Assembly (NCBI RefSeq): GCF_053078305.1
Contig: NZ_CP166879.1
Length of the DNA stretch: 64,000 nucleotides
Strand: one strand, 5' to 3'
This document shows, one piece after another, positions 3,511 to 46,300 of the stretch. The notes under the pieces are model-generated. The model was given only the letters and a program-made list of their open reading frames with translations. It had not been told where the DNA came from and did not search any database. Positions within the stretch are counted from its first letter, which is position 1, and each line of letters opens with the position of its first letter. A program made the translations under genes and the position numbers.

Positions 3511-3978
3511 ATGGCTATTGCAGAGAGAATGGGTATCTCCTCGCGCGGCGATACTTACGAAATCTGGTTGGGAGCAAACTGTTATCACTACCGCTCTGAT
3601 GGTTATGCAGTGCTTCTGAAAGAAGGCAGGAATCGTGCTTATCCATGTCGGGTGACGAGTGAAACGATTAAATCTGCGCTGGCAGCAATTGTTGAATTGC
3701 AACAGAAATTAACTGCGGCAGAGAAGAAAAAGGAGTGTGAGAACCACGGGGTTCTTTTGCCAGCTGAGATGTTAATTCGCTGTCTGGAAGATCAAACAGG
3801 GGGACGGTGGATCCGTGCACATGAACCAGTAATGCTGATGAAACGATTAATCAGTAACCTGAAAAAAGCCAGACCAGAATGTACCGTTCCTGATGAAGCG
3901 CTGGCATATCTCCGGCGTAACTGTCTGGTGAATATGGGCGATATACCCGTTACCAGCAGACGGATGTCTGACGTATAA
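3511..3978 (+). CDS. hypothetical protein (155 aa)
   Basis: Track ORF. ATG follows AAAGGGGAA in the end of the upstream gene. Confidence 0.5.
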   Translation: MAIAERMGISSRGDTYEIWLGANCYHYRSDGYAVLLKEGRNRAYPCRVTSETIKSALAAIVELQQKLTAAEKKKECENHGVLLPAEMLIRCLEDQTGGRWIRAHEPVMLMKRLISNLKKARPECTVPDEALAYLRRNCLVNMGDIPVTSRRMSDV

Positions 3979-3995
3979 CAAAAAGGAAAAGTGTA

Positions 3996-4571
3996 ATGAC
4001 ATTACCCGTAGACAGCCTGATTGCGTACACGCTGGAAAAAATGCAAGAGCGGATAGTGCAGAAAGGCCGACAACAGGACGGAAAAATACAAAGCGGACTG
4101 CTGTTTACCGGAAATGTGCATGATGCCATTCCGCGTCGACTGCTTCTGGATACTCGACTTTCTCCGCTGGATAAGATGGCGTGGATGATGATTCGGCTGT
4201 ATGCACAGAATAATGAAGGTGCAGTTTTCCCCACATATGACGAACTGCAACTGCAGCTTGCTTCCCCGGGGAAAGGAAAAGCCTCCAGGGAGACTGTCAG
4301 CCGGGTGCTGCTGATGCTGCGGATCACGGGCTGGCTGAGTCTGTGCAAACGGGTGCGTGATGAGAAAGGGCGGGTACGGGGCAATATTTATGCCCAGCAC
4401 GATGAACCGGTGACGTGCCGGGATGCTGAAATACTGGATCCACGTTATCTGGATATGGTGGCAGATGCCTGTATGAGCCGGAACCGGACCATAAGTCAGA
4501 CGGCCCGGGATATTCTGTGCGAAATAAAAAATGATCCGGGGATGCGTCATTATCACAGCCATATCAGTTAA
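3996..4571 (+). CDS. winged-helix replication-initiator-like protein (STY4528-type island replication protein)
   Basis: RBS AAAGGAAAAG. The central segment LSPLDKMAWMMIRLYA...FPTYDELQLQL...SRETVSRVLLMLRITGWL looks like a wHTH DnaD/Rep-type fold. Family name from memory. Confidence 0.5.
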   Translation: MTLPVDSLIAYTLEKMQERIVQKGRQQDGKIQSGLLFTGNVHDAIPRRLLLDTRLSPLDKMAWMMIRLYAQNNEGAVFPTYDELQLQLASPGKGKASRETVSRVLLMLRITGWLSLCKRVRDEKGRVRGNIYAQHDEPVTCRDAEILDPRYLDMVADACMSRNRTISQTARDILCEIKNDPGMRHYHSHIS

Positions 4572-4610
4572 CTGGAAGCCCGGATAGGGAGTGCCCAGAC
4601 ACCGGGACAG

Positions 4611-5240
4611 ATGGCGGCCCGTCAGCGGGTGACTGAGGACCGAATGCAGCCGGGTTCGGAAACCGAACCGGGGGTAGAAACACAGAGTTCGGTATTGAAA
4701 ATGCTGAGTTCGGATTCCGAACTCAGTGAAAAACAGGGGCAAAAAATACTGAGTTCGGATTCCGAACCATCAGAAAAATCAGAAGGTTATCACAGAGTTC
4801 GGAAACCGAACCATTACGTACGTAATATCACACACAGTGTGATTAAAAACACGTACGTATTGCCTGAAGCGCTGACAGGGCAAATCAGGGAGGAGGAGGC
4901 CATTATGCTGACCAGTCAGTTGCAGGCGCTGCCGGAAGAACTGGCGCAGGGGGTTCTGGAAAGTCTGTCAGGGATGCTGGGCAGCCACTCGCTGCAGAAT
5001 CCTGTGGGCTGGTTGCTTGCAGTGCTGAAGCGAGCCCGGGAGGGAAATTTTTATCCGCCGAAGCAGAAACAACGTGTTGTTGTGCCAGCCTCCGTACTGG
5101 CAGGAGAAAGGGGGCGAGCTACTGCGCAATCAGTTTCATCGGGGAAACGTACGGAACCGATTTCAGCAGAACGTCTGAGTGGCATTGTGGCTGGATTACG
5201 GGCCTCGCTGCGCAGATGTTCTGCGATGAGACCTGAGTGA
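4611..5240 (+). CDS. hypothetical protein; the 5' third contains palindromic iterons, C-terminus NPVGWLLAVLKRAREGNF
   Basis: Track ORF. The low-complexity repeat KMLSSDSELSEK/KILSSDSEPSEK is caused by the DNA palindromes. The coding status of the 5' part is uncertain. Confidence 0.4.
   Translation: MAARQRVTEDRMQPGSETEPGVETQSSVLKMLSSDSELSEKQGQKILSSDSEPSEKSEGYHRVRKPNHYVRNITHSVIKNTYVLPEALTGQIREEEAIMLTSQLQALPEELAQGVLESLSGMLGSHSLQNPVGWLLAVLKRAREGNFYPPKQKQRVVVPASVLAGERGRATAQSVSSGKRTEPISAERLSGIVAGLRASLRRCSAMRPE
4654..4811. repeat. four dyad-symmetric iterons GTTCGGAWWCCGAAC plus one half-site
   Basis: Cores at 4654-4668, 4708-4722 (23-bp perfect palindrome 4704-4726), 4753-4767 and 4797-4811. Half-site at 4687-4692. 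Further palindromes TTACGTACGTAA and ATCACAC-ACA-GTGTGAT follow at 4814-4845. Confidence 0.8.
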
Positions 5241-5351
5241 TTGCGATACGGGCTATGTTCGCGGGAATAAAAATCAACCAGTGCCGCCAGCGACTGGTTA
5301 AAAAGAAAACAGAATCGGGAACTGGTCAGGTGAAACAAGGTGGTAAATAGC

Positions 5352-5582
5352 ATGCAGAAATACAAACAGGAAAGTCTGAGTGCAGCCATGAAAGAAAGTG
5401 GCCTGTTGATCGCTAAAATTTGTGCCTGCGTGATTGCCGGAGTGGTGGTTATCTGGGGACTGGTGACAGGCACAGAGACCCTGCTCACTGCGCTGAAAAC
5501 AATGCACGAACAGTACGATAACAGTATGTGTTATATCGTATGTGCCACAGGGTGGTTTTTCCTGGTGTTAAGTAACTGGCTG
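5352..5582 (+). pseudogene. 5' part of a membrane-protein gene interrupted by the IS66-family element
   Basis: ATG 5352 after AAGGTGG. The reading frame continues exactly at 8104 once 5583..8103 (IS plus one TSD copy) is removed. Confidence 0.65.
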
Positions 5583-5612
5583 GTAAGCGTCAACGGAGCA
5601 CCGTATTGACGC

Positions 5613-7205
5613 TTATTTATTGGTGAGTACTACGTTCCATGGCAAGAGTTCATCAACTCGGTTGGAAGGCCATTCCGGCAGTACGCTCAGGATATGGCGC
5701 AGATACGCTTCCGGATCGATACCGTTCAGACGGCAGGTGCCGATCAGCCCGTACAACAGTGCTCCACGCTCGCCGCCGTGATCGCTGCCAAAGAACATAA
5801 AGTTTTTCTTTCCGAGACAGACTGCACGAAGCGCTCTTTCCGCAGCATTATTATCCGCCTCCGCCAGACCGTCATCACTGTAATAACAGAGGGCATCCCA
5901 CTGATTCAGTACATAGCTGAACGCTTCGCCCAGTCTGGATTTTTTCGACAGCGTACCATTCTTCTCCACCATCCATTCATGCAGCGACGTCAGTAACACT
6001 TTGCTTCGCTGCTGCCTGACGGAAAGACGCTCTGACTCCGGTAATCCCCGTATTTCATCCTCGATGGCGTACAGTTCACTGATTCGCTTCAGGGCTTCTT
6101 CTGCCTTCGCACTTTTGCTGCTGATGTATACATCGTGGATTTTTCGCCGGGCATGGGCCCAGCACGCAACTTCTGTCAGTGCACCACCTTCACGTTCTGC
6201 ACTGAACAACCTGTCGTAACCTGTGAACGCATCCGCCTGCAGGATACCCCGGAAGGGGCGGAGGTGTTGCTCCGGGTGTTTCCCCTGCCGGTTCGGCGAG
6301 TACGCGAACCAGACCGCTGGAGGAGATGACGAACCCACATTGCGATCATCCCGGACATACGTCCAGATACGCCCTGTTTTCGCCTTTTTCTGACCCGGTG
6401 CCAGTACCTTTACCGGTGTGTCATCAGTGTGAACCTTGCGGGTGTTCATTACATAACGGTACAGGGCATCATTCACCGGTGTCATTAACTGGCAGCACGC
6501 GTCAACCCAGTTGGAGAGTAAGGCCCGGCTCAGTTCGACACCCTTGCGGGCAAAGATTTCACTCTGACGATACAGTGGCAGATGTTCGCAGTATTTTCCC
6601 GTTAACACGCGGGCAAGTAATCCGGGGCCCGCGATACCACGCTCTATCGGGCGGGACGGCGCCGGTGCTTCAACGATGCAGTCACATTTTGTACAGGCTT
6701 TTTTTACCCGTTCTGTGCGGATCACTTTCAGGGCGCTGCTCACCAGTTCCAGTTGTTCTGCACTGACTTCCCCCAGATAATCCAGCTCACCGCCACACTC
6801 CGGGCAACAGCTTTCTTCAGACTCCAGACGGTGTATTTCACGGGGAAGGTGTGCCGGTAACGGACGACGATGGCGCGACTGTCGCAACTGGCGGGGAACC
6901 TGTGGATCGTCTTCCCGCCCACTGTAACGATCGCTGTCCTGTTCGCGTTGTTTCAGCAGGGCCTCAGCCTGTTCAACTTCACGACGCAGTTTTTCAGAAC
7001 GGGTACCGAACAGCATCCGGCGCAGTTTTTCTATCTGAGCCCGCAGATGTTCTATTTCCCGTTCATCTTCTTCGATCTTTTCTTCGGCACGTGCCAGTGC
7101 AGAGCGCAGGAAGGCCTCCGTCTCTTCAACCAGACTCAGTTGCTGGTCTTTCTGACGGAGCTGGCTTTCCAGTTCTGCAATGCGAATGAGGTATTTCTGA
7201 CTCAT
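5613..7205 (-). CDS. tnpC: IS66-family transposase TnpC
   Basis: 530 aa with an N-terminal coiled coil, zinc-finger CPECGGEL...CTKCDC, and the conserved core typical of IS66 Orf3. Confidence 0.9.
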   Translation of the reverse strand: MSQKYLIRIAELESQLRQKDQQLSLVEETEAFLRSALARAEEKIEEDEREIEHLRAQIEKLRRMLFGTRSEKLRREVEQAEALLKQREQDSDRYSGREDDPQVPRQLRQSRHRRPLPAHLPREIHRLESEESCCPECGGELDYLGEVSAEQLELVSSALKVIRTERVKKACTKCDCIVEAPAPSRPIERGIAGPGLLARVLTGKYCEHLPLYRQSEIFARKGVELSRALLSNWVDACCQLMTPVNDALYRYVMNTRKVHTDDTPVKVLAPGQKKAKTGRIWTYVRDDRNVGSSSPPAVWFAYSPNRQGKHPEQHLRPFRGILQADAFTGYDRLFSAEREGGALTEVACWAHARRKIHDVYISSKSAKAEEALKRISELYAIEDEIRGLPESERLSVRQQRSKVLLTSLHEWMVEKNGTLSKKSRLGEAFSYVLNQWDALCYYSDDGLAEADNNAAERALRAVCLGKKNFMFFGSDHGGERGALLYGLIGTCRLNGIDPEAYLRHILSVLPEWPSNRVDELLPWNVVLTNK

Positions 7206-7235
7206 GACCGTTTTTATAATGCGGTCAGGATTTTT

Positions 7236-7586
7236 TTACAACATTGTCAGTGAGTTACGGCGGGATGTTTTTGGCTGACGCCAGTCCAGCTTATCGAGGA
7301 GCATTGCCAGTTGCGAGCGGGTAATGGATACCTTGCCGTCACGTACCGCAGGCCAGATAAACTGGCCTTCCTCCAGGCGTTTAGTGAACAGGCACAGACC
7401 ATCAGCATCAGCCCAAAGAATTTTAACGGTGTCACCCCGTCGGCCACGGAAGATAAACAGGTGACCGGAGAAGGGATTATCATTCAGCACATGTTGTACC
7501 TGTTCTCCCAGTCCGTTGAAGGATTTACGCATATCGGTAACGCCGGCAACGAGCCAGATACGGGTACCTGATGGGAGTGAGATCAT
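7236..7586 (-). CDS. tnpB: IS66 accessory protein TnpB (Orf2)
   Basis: 116 aa. RIWLVAGVTDMRKSFNGL...IFRGRRGDTVKILWADADGLCLF is the hallmark IS66 Orf2 sequence. Confidence 0.9.
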   Translation of the reverse strand: MISLPSGTRIWLVAGVTDMRKSFNGLGEQVQHVLNDNPFSGHLFIFRGRRGDTVKILWADADGLCLFTKRLEEGQFIWPAVRDGKVSITRSQLAMLLDKLDWRQPKTSRRNSLTML

Positions 7587-8008
7587 CTTCCCCTCCCGGT
7601 CAGTTCACGGATCAACACCGTGAGCAGCTCTGGCGATGGATTTTCCAGCGTCATGTTACCGTGACGGAATTCCACCTTGCAGGAGCTGGCACTGACTCTG
7701 GTCTGAGAGGTAGTGGATAAAGATGGCGCAATGGCCACCACAGGTTCTTTCTGCTCATCCGGCGTTATTTCTACAGGTAATAATTCAACGCCAGTGTCAG
7801 AAGAGGTCGTTACCGGAAGACGCCGCGAAACACGCCCTTCGTTCTGCCAGAGCCTGAGCCATTTGAACAGGAGGTTATCATTGATATCGTGTTCCCGGGC
7901 GATACGGGCAACAGAGGCTCCTGGTTGCAAAGCCAGTTTAACCATTTGAAGTTTAAAATTATTTGAAAATGATCTGCGGGGTTCTGCGGATAATGTTTTT
8001 TGCTCCAT
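7583..8008 (-). CDS. tnpA: IS66 accessory protein TnpA (Orf1, HTH)
   Basis: 141 aa. RRSFSNNFKLQMVKLALQPGASVARIAREHDINDNLLFKW is an HTH. 4-nt overlap with tnpB. Confidence 0.85.
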   Translation of the reverse strand: MEQKTLSAEPRRSFSNNFKLQMVKLALQPGASVARIAREHDINDNLLFKWLRLWQNEGRVSRRLPVTTSSDTGVELLPVEITPDEQKEPVVAIAPSLSTTSQTRVSASSCKVEFRHGNMTLENPSPELLTVLIRELTGRGR

Positions 8009-8103
8009 AACAGGCGTCCACTAGTTTGAAAAGGTGGGCACCTACGTTACCAATACTGGCTTAATGGCTACATACGGCAGTCGGTTTACGCTTACACTGG
8101 CTG

Positions 8104-8352
8104 TGGATCACATACAGTCTTTATAAAGCGCGTACAGGCAGTACAGTCGGAGGGGGCCTGCAATTTATGCTCCTCCTGAGTCTGCTGGCAGAATGCTTTT
8201 CATTTTTTGTGATTTTCTGGTCATTGTCTCATCTGGATATAACCGACATTCAGTTGCTCGTGATGGGGATAACAACATTAATGCTGTTTTTGTCTCTGAA
8301 CGTTAAGGTAGTAGTCATCATTAACCATGTTGCCAGTGGCAACAGTGATTAA
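8104..8352 (+). pseudogene. 3' part of the IS-interrupted membrane-protein gene
   Basis: In frame with 5352..5582 after IS removal (21 codons, then track ORF 8167..8352). The stop lies in the first unit of the 36-bp array. Confidence 0.65.
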
Positions 8353-9120
8353 AAAGCGAGCGGTGTTGCCAGTGGCAACAGAGTACAGAAAATAGTCAAT
8401 GGTGCCAGTGGCACCAGAGTACAAAAAATACTCAATGGTGCCAGTGGCACCATAGTATAAAAAATAGCCAATGGTGCCAGTGGTACCAGAGTACAAAAAA
8501 TAGCCAATGGTGCCAGTGGCACCAGAGTACAAAAAATAGCCAATGGTGCCAGTGGCACCATAGTATAAAAAATAGCCAATGGTGCCAGTGGCACCAGAGT
8601 ACAAAAAATAGCCAATGGTGCCAGTGGCACCAGAGTACAAAAAATAGCCAATGGTGCCAGTGGCACCATAGTATAAAAAATAGCCAATGGTGCCAGTGGC
8701 ACCAGAGTACAAAAAATAGCCAATGGTGCCAGTGGCACCATAGTATAAAAAATAGCCAATGGTGCCAGTGGCACCAGAGTACAAAAAATAGCCAATGGTG
8801 CCAGTGGCACCATAGTATAAAAAATAGCCAATGGTGCCAGTGGCAACAGAGTACAGAAAATAGTCAATGGTGCCAGTGGCACCAGAGTACAAAAAATAGT
8901 CAATGGTGCCAGTGGCACCATAGTATAAAAAATAGCCAATGGTGCCAGTGGCAGCAGAGGTTAAAAAGCGAACAGTGCAGCCAGTGGCAGCAGAGGTTAA
9001 AAAGTGAACAGTGCTGCCAGTGGCAGCAGAGATTAAAAAATGAGCAGTGCTGCCAGTGGCAACAGAGGTTAAAAAGTGAGCGGTGTTGCCAGTGGCAACA
9101 GCGATTAAAAAATAAGCGGC
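8325..9120. repeat. tandem array of 22 x 36-bp units, each with a 15-bp palindrome NNTGCCAGTGGCANN and an A-tract
   Basis: The CCAGTGG core recurs at exactly 8333+36k for k=0..21. Central units alternate two subtypes (..CAGAGTACAAAAAATAG.. and ..CATAGTATAAAAAATAG..); outer units are more diverged. Confidence 0.95.
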
Positions 9121-9192: not shown

Positions 9193-9921
9193 ATGAAATC
9201 ATTCGGAGTAAACACAATGCCCCAGGAGAAAACCGGAGAAGTCAGAAAATCAGAACAAGTTGGTGCTCTGCAGTCATCGCTGACTATTGCCCTTCATACC
9301 CGATATGCGATCCGTCTCTGGGAGGGACGCAGGAATAATCAGAAGGAAGAAAAACAGGAAAAGCGGCCTGACATCATCAGTATGCCCAGGGCTATTGCGT
9401 TTGCGGGTCAGGCAACCAGAGATTCAGCCAGGGATAATCCTTATGCAGATATGATGTTAGTCAGGCTGGAAAATGCCCTGACGAAGGCAACTGAAACAAT
9501 TGAAAAGCATCTTGCGTGGCTTGACGGGATCCTTAAAAACCTGCCGGGACAGATCTCCCTTTCTGATATTAAATCCTCTTCGCCGGTAAATATTGGCGTG
9601 TACAGTAGTTCTCCGGTCGGTTATCGATGTGTATGGCTTCTGATCGGATATGATCGACTGGTCATGAAGGTATTTCAGGTATTTCATTACGGACTTATTT
9701 CCCGCACAAAACGGGATGAGTTGCTGAATCAGGGAGGGTATGCGGTACGCAGGATTTACGGGATTATTCAAAATTATAAATCAGTCAGTGTTACACGTGC
9801 TGATATTTTGTCCGGCACAGCCCGTGGAAAGGAGGCGGTTAACCGCATGGGGGAGCCGGATCCTGACGTGATGAGCGGTAAGAAACGTTCTGTTTATTCA
9901 CCACCGGTTAAAGCGGGGTGA
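9193..9921 (+). CDS. ICE conserved protein (PFL_4669/DUF3158-like)
   Basis: Position immediately upstream of topB with a 4-nt overlap. LHTRYAIRLWEGR matches my recollection of this ICE family; unverified. Alternative start at 9217. Confidence 0.45.
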   Translation: MKSFGVNTMPQEKTGEVRKSEQVGALQSSLTIALHTRYAIRLWEGRRNNQKEEKQEKRPDIISMPRAIAFAGQATRDSARDNPYADMMLVRLENALTKATETIEKHLAWLDGILKNLPGQISLSDIKSSSPVNIGVYSSSPVGYRCVWLLIGYDRLVMKVFQVFHYGLISRTKRDELLNQGGYAVRRIYGIIQNYKSVSVTRADILSGTARGKEAVNRMGEPDPDVMSGKKRSVYSPPVKAG

Positions 9922-43348: not shown

Positions 43349-46300
43349 TTCCCCTCCTCCTTCTTCGCGCTAGAAGAGAACTGATTATTACTACTTGCTT
43401 CTTTTATATATCCACCAAGAAATTCACTACCAAAAGATCCTGTCGCATCAAATATAAATCCCGGAAACTCTTTCCCAGTAACTGAGTTTACTATTCCGGG
43501 AGCATATACTCCAAATGCTCCACCCAATCCGGCCCCGGCAGCAGCCCCTCCAATAGAGCCTGTATTTGGACCATCGGTAAAGAATGCACCACCCATCGCA
43601 ATTCCGACGTTTTGTCCGACAGTTCTCCCCGGCGCAAGCATACCCGCAATGCCTGAACTGGCACTGCTTTTCCAGTCCCAGTTTTTGTTTTCATTACCTG
43701 GCTGGCTTAAATCAAACCACTGGTAACTTCCATTGGCTATCTCCGCGACGACTCCACCACTGACCATTTTACCGACCGAAGCAGCAGGCCCCAGATACCA
43801 TGCCCCGGCAATCATTACACCATCCTGATATCCATCCACGATCACTTTCGTGATATTGGTGCTGTCCGGCATATCACCTTTCGCTATCTTATCCAGTCCA
43901 GCCTGTGTTTGTTCCGGTGTCAGATTATTGTCCACCGCGTACTTGTTCCATGATGTAGCCGCAGCAGCATTGCTTTCAAAACCATCACCGAAGCTGAGCG
44001 CATTATTCTCAACCGTCGTCTTACCTGACTGTGCTCCGGCTACCGCTGAAGCTCCCGAATCTCCCACCAGACCACCGGCCAGGCCGGCAGCAACCGTTGC
44101 CAGTGTCGAGACCGTCTGCTTCTCTGTCCCGCTCAGTTCACTCACCGGCTTACCGTACATCTGTGTGGCTATCATTCCCACCACCTCGCCGGTGGCTGCG
44201 CCTGCGGCACCAGCCAGAGCATTCTTACCCTGTGCCAGAGACAGGGCTGCATTCACTACTGCATGAGCTGCCACACGTCCCGCACCGTCCGGGGTGGTCT
44301 GTTTGATAATTTCAGCAATATACGGTGCTGCACCACCTGCCAGGGCTGCACTCAGATTACCGCCGGCCAGCCCCTGTACTGCTGCCGTTGCGGCCTGTAT
44401 CGCCTGCTGGTATTTGCCTCCCGTTCCAAAACCTGAGGCCGCCATACCGTTATTGTAGGCCCGCTGCGCCACATCCTGTTCCGTGAACGGTTTTCCTGCT
44501 GCCTCAAGCTCCTCACGGGCCTGATTCAGTGCTGCCGGGTCCCGCTTCGCTTTCTCACCAGCTATCTGGCCTTCCGTTCTGGCAATATCTGCCACCTGGT
44601 TACCAATCTCACCAATGAGCTGCGCCTGCTGCAGTCGCTGCTGCTCTTTTTCCCTGTCAAAGATGGGGGACAGCGTCTGGTTTGCATGTGCTGCGTCACG
44701 GTTCAGGTCTGCCACATCCTGTTTCTGGCTCTGCGTATCCCGGATGGTGATATTCCCGGCAGACACAGCCGACTGAGTGGTGCTTTCTGCATGGCCTTCA
44801 TGATTTGCACCAACCAGCAGATTGTTGGCCATATTTCCCGCGAACTGGCCACCGATGCTGCCGCCAGTGCTGATACCCACGCTCTGGTGTTCAACTTTGT
44901 AATCAGCACGATTTTCGATATCACGGAAGCCCAGTGTACCGGTATCCAGCCGGTTTTTATCTGCCGTTGCCGTGGACGCAATCACCGCACCGTTCAGTTG
45001 CGTATGCTGTCCGGTGGTGACATCAAACCCGCCCCTGCCGGCAAAAATCCCCGTCTGCTCCTGCACACTGTCATAGTTACTGTGCATTTTATCCCGGCTG
45101 AGGCTCACACTCGCCGAACCGCTCATGGACCCGAAAGTGAAGCTGCCTCCGGCACTGGCATTCTGCTGCTTACTGTCATAACGGTCACTGTCCTGCTCAC
45201 TGGTCAGTGTCAGATGACGACCGGCATCCACTTTCACCGTTTCACCGCCGGCCTGCACGCCGGTAAGCGTGGTGTCCCGCCCGCTGATAATGGTCAGGCG
45301 GTTTCCCGCATCCACCGTGGTTTCTGTATGGGTGGTACCGTTGCCTTTTTCACTGCCCTTACCCTGGTTTGCGCTGGCTGAAACACTGATACCCCAGCCT
45401 CCGGCCCCCACACCGATACCGACACCCACACTGCCGCCACTGGATGAGTTCTTTCCTTCCAGCTTTGACGTGTTTTCTGCTGATACCAGATTCACGTCAC
45501 GGTTTGCCTGCAGCAGAACGTTGTTCCCTGCCTTTATCTGACTGCCCTGTATCGTCAGGTCACCATCCACGTCCTTCACGCCGGAGCCGGTGGCCTGAAT
45601 ACTGAGGTTATTACCTGCGGTCAGGGCGCTGTTCTTCGCCACCGTCTGCTCTGACTGCTGTTCTGATTTCGAAGACTGGCTGCCGTAAGAGAGGCTGATA
45701 CCCACGGCATTGTTATTCTCTTTCTGGTTGCCCTGTGCTTCTGCCAGTCGTCCGGCCTGCACGGCCTGAGCCCCCGAGAGCGCGGCCTTCACCCCCTGCA
45801 GGGCTTCAAGCCGGCTGTTTCCGGCAGATTTCGCCGCCTGCACGGTCTCCACCGTCGTGTTCAGGGCGCTGCCCACTGTGCCGGACAGGGCAAGCGTCAG
45901 ACCGGAGGTTTTCTGCTCCACCGAATGCGTCTGCACATGCCGGTCTGTGACGGCGCTAATGCTGACCTCCTTACCACTGAGTGCCATGTCCCTGCCGGCA
46001 ATCAGGTCAGCACTGTTGGCGCTCAGCCGGTTACCTGCCTGAAGGGAAACATCACCGTGAACACTCCCCACCGTGCTGCCTTTCTGTGTGCTGTCTGTTG
46101 CGGTGTCCGTGACTTTCAGACTCTGGCTGCCCACACTGAATCCCACACCTCCGGAGCTCATCAGCCCGGATTTTTTCTCCTGTTTCAGGTGTGTTTCACG
46201 GTTGCTTTCTGTCAGCGTGCCGATACTCAGGTCATTTCCGGCAGCCAGGGAGACACGGTTATCCCCGGCCACACTGCTGCCCGTGACGTTCAGATTATGT

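Follow-up and report, generated by a model that had tools for sequence, protein, structure and literature searches.

The DNA analyzed here is a stretch of 64,000 nucleotides from contig NZ_CP166879.1 (NCBI RefSeq assembly GCF_053078305.1; the whole stretch is referred to hereafter as the window), which carries the backbone of an ICE (integrative conjugative element). Our subject is a cluster of dyad-symmetric repeats, together with an adjoining AT-rich segment, that lies inside a gene for an ICE "replication protein" of the STY4528 family and probably belongs to the element's vegetative origin of replication (oriV). The gene and the features within it are as follows.

3996..5240, plus strand: STY4528-family ICE "replication protein" gene (NCBIfam NF040582), interrupted in the window; 414 codons in relatives
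4569..4571, plus strand: premature stop TAA, CAA in relatives, seen by alignment with SI-NP020 and KE41
4654..4668, no strand: iteron 1, GTTCGGAAACCGAAC, translated GSETE; position kept in homologues
4681..4692, no strand: decayed iteron with half-site, CACAGAGTTCGG, at a step of 33 bp from iteron 1 and of 21 bp to iteron 2
4704..4726, no strand: iteron 2, a perfect 23-bp palindrome, CTGAGTTCGGATTCCGAACTCAG, translated SSDSE
4753..4767, no strand: iteron 3, GTTCGGATTCCGAAC, translated SSDSE
4777..4789, plus strand: site resembling the consensus for integration host factor (IHF), AATCAGAAGGTTA, between iterons 3 and 4
4797..4811, no strand: iteron 4, GTTCGGAAACCGAAC, in another reading frame (VRKPN) after a 44-bp step
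4812..4862, no strand: AT-rich, imperfectly palindromic 51-bp segment, a candidate unwinding element from its GC content and conservation

Dyad repeats inside an interrupted STY4528-family gene

An earlier note on this DNA had placed the repeats in an open reading frame (ORF) of their own, directly downstream of a winged-helix replication-type gene. The repeats do lie inside ORF 4611..5240, but this ORF and ORF 3996..4571 share one frame, separated by the single TAA at 4569–4571, and are one gene that the stop has split. Against the NF040582 profile (323 positions, cutoff 130 bits), the N-terminal half scores 302 bits over positions 1–159 and the C-terminal half 88.5 bits over positions 173–322, and the intact allele of a 99.7%-identical E. 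coli ICE scores 414 bits, placing the gene within the family. By megablast, the region has a counterpart of 98.6–99.7% identity in 18 complete E. coli genomes, and in 17 of these a single 1245-bp coding sequence, equivalent to window positions 3996–5240, is annotated as "STY4528 family pathogenicity island replication protein". One frame, one NCBIfam profile and a single coding sequence in relatives rule out two separate genes; as the two ORFs are halves of one gene, the repeats fall midway along the replication-type gene itself (codons 220–272 of 414, the linker-coding part) and not in a neighboring ORF.

All 82 relatives examined have an intact gene (390–441 residues), whereas the window copy has no intact ORF. 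The TAA allele is absent from the 5,426 complete E. coli genomes searched, the best 18 matches being 98% identical over 101 nt. Judged from the alignment, the window copy is either a pseudogene (or strain-specific inactivation) or the product of a sequencing error; the origin-candidate DNA itself is intact.

Exact GTTCGGAWWCCGAAC sites occur at 4654–4668, 4708–4722, 4753–4767 and 4797–4811 (centers 4661, 4715, 4760 and 4804), and GTTCGGWWWCCGAAC is present in four copies starting at 4654, 4708, 4753 and 4797, giving start-to-start steps of 54, 45 and 44 bp. The 64-kb window contains no further GTTCGGAWWCCGAAC site even when up to two mismatches are allowed; its eight strand-matches exceed both the expected 0.36 and the number seen in each of 100 shuffles, which rules out a chance origin of the repeats. 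What the earlier note had read directly from the letters was borne out here: four exact matches at the four centers that it gave, a perfect 23-bp palindrome at 4704–4726, a half-site at 4687–4692 (GTTCGG), a 44–45 bp spacing of the last three repeats (measured as 45 and 44 bp), a repetitive peptide SSDSE(L/P)SEK, encoded in both versions (SSDSELSEK and SSDSEPSEK), and an AT-rich stretch with palindromes after the repeats (4814–4850 in the note, 4812–4862 here). The half-site shares its left flank, CACAGAGTTCGG, with repeat 4, and relatives L057 and L063 have a full dyad where the window has the half-site.

Across the family, the sites conform to an extended palindrome, (C)TGAGTTCGG-WWW-CCGAACTCAG, the center of which is rich in A/T. 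The outer flanks of the dyads are no more complementary than shuffled partners and display no covariation beyond the consensus, so that they appear to be conserved as sequence, as for a site bound by a dimeric protein, and not as a stem. Selection for hairpins at the iterons is thereby ruled out, and by this comparison the dyads fit a dimeric protein site rather than a hairpin.

Directly after iteron 4 comes the GC-poorest part of the region, with a GC content of ~0.38–0.43 at 4812–4862 vs 0.55–0.68 in the flanks. This segment contains TTACGTACGTAA (4814–4825), the inverted repeat ATCACAC-ACA-GTGTGAT (4827–4843), an A-run (A5) and ACGTACGT (4851–4858). GC-rich relatives also have the GC minimum of the gene (0.26–0.30) directly after the last dyad, the Pseudomonas aeruginosa plasmid pUM505 falling to 0.26 within a gene of 0.60 GC. 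No other DNA in the gene is as well conserved as this stretch behind the last dyad, which has the consensus (T/A)ACGTACGT(A/T)-N-TTCACAC-N3-GTGTGAA-TAAAAAAACGTACGTA, and its inner inverted repeat is symmetric in at least five variants (ATCACAC/GTGTGAT, TTCACAC/GTGTGAA, TATTACAC/GTGTAATA, TACACA/TGTGTA and TATTGTTA/TAACAATA). In the Xenorhabdus loci (L027–L047) both ACGTACGT motifs are changed, the left to ATGTACGT and the right to ACATACGT (CG>TG and CG>CA). These changes fall at non-pairing positions, ruling out hairpin covariation between the two motifs.

Positions 4777–4789 form a putative IHF site, identified by its match to the consensus WATCARNNNNTTR. In at least 47 of 76 homologous genes that consensus recurs at one fixed position between the last two dyads, and it is matched only once elsewhere in the 140 kb of those genes, counting both strands. 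No promoter-like (sigma-70) site was found inside the region. A search of Rfam gave no family above chance, the only matches being sub-threshold noise from eukaryotic miRNAs, and a known RNA family is thus ruled out as the identity of the region.

Constraint on the DNA rather than the peptide

Homologues of the gene were compared across 80 loci, taken as species representatives from Enterobacterales plus one Pseudomonas (49–84% protein identity), and across an extra set of four plasmid records, the whole covering Enterobacterales, Pseudomonas and Ralstonia. Conservation of the iterons against synonymous drift was a check named beforehand, in the earlier note, and it came out in favor of the iterons: the dyads are kept in the homologous genes and third codon positions are frozen. 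Every locus has dyads with the 13-nt core TTCGGNNNCCGAA, and within the 7–18 kb covered per locus they are confined to a stretch 650–900 nt from the start of the gene. With one mismatch allowed, each of 82 loci holds between one and six dyads, four being the commonest number.

The position of the dyads is fixed but their reading frame is not. The Enterobacterales set contains 242 dyads, 200 of them in frame 1 (encoding xS[ED][ST]E) and 42 in frame 0 (VR[KNQ][PS]N), the 44-bp step that precedes the last dyad shifting the frame. Plasmid pUM505 has four dyads in frames 0, 1, 1 and 0, a Stutzerimonas element has dyads in all three frames, and a betaproteobacterial Ralstonia replicon has two, 44 bp apart, in two frames. 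Spacings between dyads are quantized across the family (21, 33, 42, 44/45 and 54 bp, approximately n × 11), and such near-multiples of 11 bp would place the sites on one face of the helix.

Third-codon-position entropy, calculated from a codon alignment of 76 distinct genes, has a gene mean of 1.38 bits and falls to 0.65 bits at codons 264–287 and to 0.39 bits at codons 271–280; several codons of the region vary at positions 1 and 2 but never at position 3. The N-terminal domain, which is much better conserved as protein (94–96% amino-acid identity), still has a third-position entropy of 1.1–1.2 bits.

Natural variation within E. coli informs on the role of the peptide. Alleles exist that are short by exactly 18, 33 or 7 residues, corresponding to iteron-to-iteron deletions, with the rest of the protein unchanged; these clean unit deletions indicate that iteron copy number is polymorphic within E. 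coli and, as one or two repeat units can be missing from natural alleles, that the peptide is dispensable. The deletion alleles are found in E. coli protein clusters P0002, P0003, P0004, P0022 and P0034, which hold two to four iterons. The STY4528 family as a whole comprises 628 clusters at 50% identity (E ≤ 1e-3), and relatives at 29–38% identity retain the footprint SSxSE...(15 aa)...VRNPN at the equivalent place.

Position-locked dyads read in two to three frames, combined with the collapse of third-position variation, point to a constraint on the DNA. A repeat selected at the protein level is ruled out by the changes of reading frame, by synonymous sites that do not vary and by the natural loss of whole units. 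By these comparative measures, a conserved cis-acting DNA element exists at 4650–4862, family-wide and extending from beta- to gammaproteobacteria.

The encoded protein and known origins inside initiator genes

We next consider the protein in which this element is embedded. A shallow alignment yielded an AlphaFold model with a predicted local distance difference test (pLDDT) score of 53, which was unusable; a deeper alignment of 58 diverse relatives was therefore used, giving a model with a mean pLDDT of 78. Its parts are as follows.

Residues ~40–180, pLDDT 89–97: N-terminal domain, a winged helix (helices 57–72, 81–87 and 98–110; hairpin 114–134)
Residues 222–283, pLDDT <50: linker, coinciding exactly with what the iterons and the AT-rich segment encode
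Residues 290–350, pLDDT 94–97: C-terminal three-helix domain
Residues 391–413, pLDDT ~66–89 (block means): tail, a terminal helix

The linker between the winged-helix N-terminal domain and the helical C-terminal domain is predicted to be disordered. The fold of the model is of the DnaD/RepA_N initiator type, with generic winged-helix regulators and ORC/Cdc6 winged helices among the structural likenesses in later ranks. A sequence search of PDB chains with the protein returned nothing meaningful, and Pfam gave it no hit above threshold. HTH_36 is matched in 6 of the 58 diverse members. RP-C_C (PF11800, the RepC C-terminal region) appears at sub-threshold level in 20 of the 58, at an NPxGYL...A..G.F motif, with a best E of 1.4e-5 and 15–16 bits among the matches listed vs a gathering threshold of 32.6. 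The RepC N-terminal family RP-C (PF03428) has no match in the 58 members, so the protein does not qualify as a RepC. RepA_N (PF06970) has no Pfam match for the protein and is absent from the 25 listed of the 43 families matched by the 58 members, and there is likewise no Pfam match to Phage_rep_O, the sequence signature of a lambda O-type protein, so that the likeness to lambda O is one of architecture only.

The arrangement of an origin between two domains of its initiator has several precedents. Lambda O has a DNA-binding N-domain and a helicase-recruiting C-domain, with the origin in between. Within gene O, ori-lambda consists of four 18-bp iterons and a 38-bp AT-rich stretch (PMC3349717). 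The window shares with it four dyad-symmetric iterons followed by an AT-rich segment of ~40–50 bp inside an initiator gene; the lambda iterons, however, are 18 bp long and tightly packed, whereas the window sites lie 33–54 bp apart, and the window element is without an evident P-like loader gene, having a DnaB homologue of its own instead.

The Rep boxes of pSK41, four in number, lie "centrally within the rep gene"; the linker sequence encoded by its ori is dispensable for replication, and the C-domain of Rep binds DnaG (Kwong et al, 2017; PMC5703833). The likeness to pSK41 Rep and the RepA_N type (theta replicons from Gram-positive plasmids; structure 4pta) extends to a DnaD-like winged-helix N-domain, central origin boxes and a dispensable linker. 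The differences are a Gram-negative host, an ICE as carrier, 15–23-bp palindromes spaced 33–54 bp apart, a DnaB-type helicase belonging to the element, and a C-terminal domain that weakly resembles RepC rather than the DnaG-binding domain of pSK41.

In repABC replicons, the oriV lies within repC at an AT-rich region and is without iterons, and the initiator acts in cis (Cervantes-Rivera et al, 2011; PMC3155836). Common to both systems are an AT-rich origin, a candidate one in the window, inside the initiator gene, a gene position after parA/parB-type genes and the weak RP-C_C matches; the window differs in having iterons, and its RP-C_C matches stay below threshold. By analogy, pSK41 Rep (RepA_N type) and RepC rank with lambda O among the closest precedents. 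The likeness to ori-lambda that the earlier note had drawn holds insofar as iterons and an AT-rich segment lie inside an initiator-like gene, but it is not exclusive, pSK41 Rep and RepC being equally close.

A candidate vegetative origin in its element context

We consider it fairly probable, from the comparative sequence evidence, that 4650–4862 forms the core, iterons plus DNA-unwinding segment, of the origin from which a SPI-7/PFGI-1/pKLC102-type ICE replicates vegetatively, and that the STY4528 protein is its initiator. As in iteron-type oriVs generally, several helically phased copies of one sequence adjoin an AT-rich segment. We infer the identity of the dyad-binding protein, and likewise that replication starts at this site. 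The earlier note had also proposed a vegetative origin of an ICE, a proposal that fits all of the comparative evidence (in-gene repeats, DNA-level conservation, ~11-bp phasing and the AT-rich segment) but that had already been made for PFGI-1. In this element of Pseudomonas fluorescens Pf-5, Mavrodi et al (2009) placed a putative oriV "immediately upstream of PFL_4669" (PMC2647930), made up of a palindrome, CTGAGTTCGGAATCCGAACTCAGT, in four copies and a second half of four 46-bp repeats (PMC2647930). The window resembles it in element family, in a near-identical palindrome (iteron 2 equals the PFGI-1 palindrome except at the central base), in the same place 5′ of a PFL_4669-family gene, and in the longer direct repeats that follow; the repeat array is 46 bp there vs 36 bp in the window. 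Juhas et al (2007) reported iteron-like putative oriVs in ICEHin1056, pKLC102, SPI-7 and PAPI (PMC2258188), and a 2020 review calls the oriV of pKLC102, which reaches up to 30 episomal copies, "postulated" (PMC7685784).

The repeats are therefore not new in kind: the palindrome has been in print since 2009 as a component of a putative oriV, and initiator genes that contain an origin are known. New here are the placement of the repeats in the linker-coding part of an initiator-like gene, the strong evidence for selection at DNA level across beta- and gammaproteobacteria, the AT-rich palindromic module with its IHF-like site, and the predicted DnaD/RepA_N-type fold.

A mechanism can be proposed in which STY4528 dimers would bind the palindromic sites through the winged helix, with the sites on one helical face, and the IHF-like site that separates iterons 3 and 4 may be used by a DNA-bending protein of the host. 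The resulting protein–DNA complex would open the adjacent AT-rich 50 bp, and the C-terminal domain would recruit the element's own DnaB-type helicase, together with single-stranded DNA-binding protein (SSB) and topoisomerase III.

The genes that such a mechanism would draw upon are present in the surrounding backbone, which we assign to the SPI-7/PFGI-1/pKLC102 type through the annotation of near-identical E. coli ICEs. The gene order in these is ParA, dnaB-PI ("SPI-7-type island replicative DNA helicase"), ParB, DUF2786, DUF2857, small ORFs and STY4528, followed 3′ of the STY4528 gene by a PFL_4669-family gene, topoisomerase III, a "STY4534 family ICE replication protein", SSB, PilL2 and then a transfer system of MPF_G type. 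The DnaB-type helicase gene lies ~6 kb upstream of the candidate origin, a ParB-family gene lies ~2 kb upstream in all relatives, and pUM505 and records from Pantoea, Ralstonia and Stutzerimonas keep to this module order. One circular Stutzerimonas record of 95.5 kb has the backbone, lacks a recognized replicon type and is annotated with no further initiator, which speaks for the origin reading. The cargo of the SI-NP020 ICE includes nucleotidyltransferase, ThiF-family adenylyltransferase, MPN/JAB and SAVED-domain genes in a row (L087:38134–42445), an anti-phage set resembling a cyclic oligonucleotide-based antiphage signaling system (CBASS). Two further features lie 3′ of the STY4528 gene in the window.

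5583..8095, minus strand: ISEc23 (IS66-family) insertion, 340 bp 3′ of the STY4528 gene, separating the gene from the downstream repeat array
8328..9100, no strand: 22 tandem 36-bp repeats, each with a 17-bp palindrome, TGGTGCCAGTGGCACCA, lying directly 5′ of the PFL_4669-family gene at 9193..9921

The 36-bp array varies in copy number, there being ~11 copies in the SI-NP020 ICE vs 22 in the window, and corresponds to the second half of the oriV proposed for PFGI-1; it is possibly a centromere.

Several observations weigh against an origin at 4650–4862 with STY4528 as its initiator. Foldseek searches of the PDB with the whole model gave nothing below E = 0.28, and Pfam gave no above-threshold match to any Rep family. 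No DnaA box (TTWTNCACA) was found in 3900–5400. The second array at 8328–9100 could be the real initiator-binding array, with the dyads bound by, for example, ParB. The Pantoea agglomerans plasmid pNBBC01-4 (71.6 kb) combines the ICE backbone with a second, conventional "replication initiation protein" (43897–44583) next to a TrfB-related gene, such that plasmid status is no proof of origin function; from its gene content, pNBBC01-4 seems to unite an ICE backbone with a plasmid replicon, through fusion or through capture by the replicon. In ICEclc, which serves as experimental model for the wider family, the excised element needed the TraI relaxase and oriT1 to reach extra copies, although the same study hints at "further alternative replication mechanisms" (PMC6561031). 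Finally, the literature searched yielded no experimental test of the family origin (replication assay, footprint or marker frequency) or of STY4528 binding, the oriV being only "postulated".

Of the alternatives, the one that survives best, which we nevertheless regard as unlikely, holds that the dyads (GTTCGGNNNCCGAAC) are centromere-like or operator sites for another ICE protein (a ParB parS cluster, autoregulation or copy-control "handcuffing") and that the 36-bp array is the true initiator-binding array. The proximity of the ParB-family gene lends it some weight, parS sites being typically short palindromes near parB, as does the fact that the published oriV proposal includes both repeat blocks and assigns neither to a protein (PMC2647930). 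Yet the dyads are locked inside the STY4528 gene in every relative, even where other genes are rearranged, and the conserved AT-rich segment that follows them and the IHF-like site among them resemble an origin more than a centromere. The centromere model that the 36-bp array brings to mind is sopC of F. With its internal palindromes, that array looks more like a sopC-type centromere, and its sequence and period differ between elements.

That the region might instead be a transfer-related or single-strand site, either an oriT accessory or a site of single-stranded DNA (ssDNA) initiation or primosome assembly in conjugation or relaxase-driven rolling-circle replication, seems improbable to us. 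Folding of 4790–4870 as ssDNA gives a long hairpin (z = −5.8), the inner inverted repeat has stayed symmetric through sequence turnover, and the replication of ICEclc depends on a relaxase and oriT1. The relaxase gene, however, is tens of kb away in related elements, and the oriTs of ICEclc flank traI rather than parB. Moreover, the iteron arms are conserved in sequence with flanks that do not covary, which points to recognition of a duplex, and the ACGTACGT changes in Xenorhabdus fall at positions that are not partners. Least probable is a feature of RNA or protein (mRNA hairpins, antisense terminators, or an acidic Ser/Glu linker with palindromic codons by coincidence), since, for all that two dyads followed by T-runs score as terminator-like on the minus strand and the peptide is repetitive, the same DNA core encodes unrelated peptides in two or three frames at frozen synonymous positions, in-frame deletions remove whole units from a linker predicted to be disordered, and the stems neither covary nor match an Rfam family above chance.

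Returning to the candidate origin and its state in the window, the ISEc23 insertion carries tnpA, tnpB and a gene for a 530-residue transposase on the minus strand, sits in a small hypothetical gene and is missing from the 18 near-identical E. coli ICEs. Because of the nonsense codon in the initiator gene, together with this IS66-family insertion nearby, the window copy probably cannot fire its own origin; it has probably lost self-initiated replication except with help in trans, unless the stop is a sequencing error.

ICEs of the superfamily that includes SPI-7, PAPI-1, pKLC102, ICEclc and ICEHin1056 carry pathogenicity, resistance and catabolic genes, and their persistence and amplification after excision are understood in part. 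Relaxase-driven replication is what the model ICEclc suggests, but each of these elements encodes a DnaB helicase, SSB, topoisomerase III and putative "replication proteins". The finding overturns nothing, in that the repeats were already suspected of being an origin and in-gene origins are known from lambda, pSK41 and repABC. A broader proposal, on which we are evenly divided, is that the STY4528 family is a Gram-negative counterpart of the RepA_N and lambda O-type initiators, has its origin embedded in the DNA for its own linker, and provides the SPI-7/PAPI-1/pKLC102/PFGI-1 superfamily with a self-contained theta-type replicon that uses its own DnaB. If this proposal is true, these elements would possess a form of initiator-driven replication distinct from, and additional to, the relaxase/oriT route of ICEclc; this would explain the multicopy episomal state of pKLC102 and plasmid forms such as pUM505, and would identify as a replicator a DNA motif conserved from beta- to gammaproteobacteria. 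A family-wide element of ~210 bp inside an initiator-like gene provides a precise target for tests of replication, incompatibility and copy number, and its sequence signature helps to recognize both functional and decayed copies in genomes.

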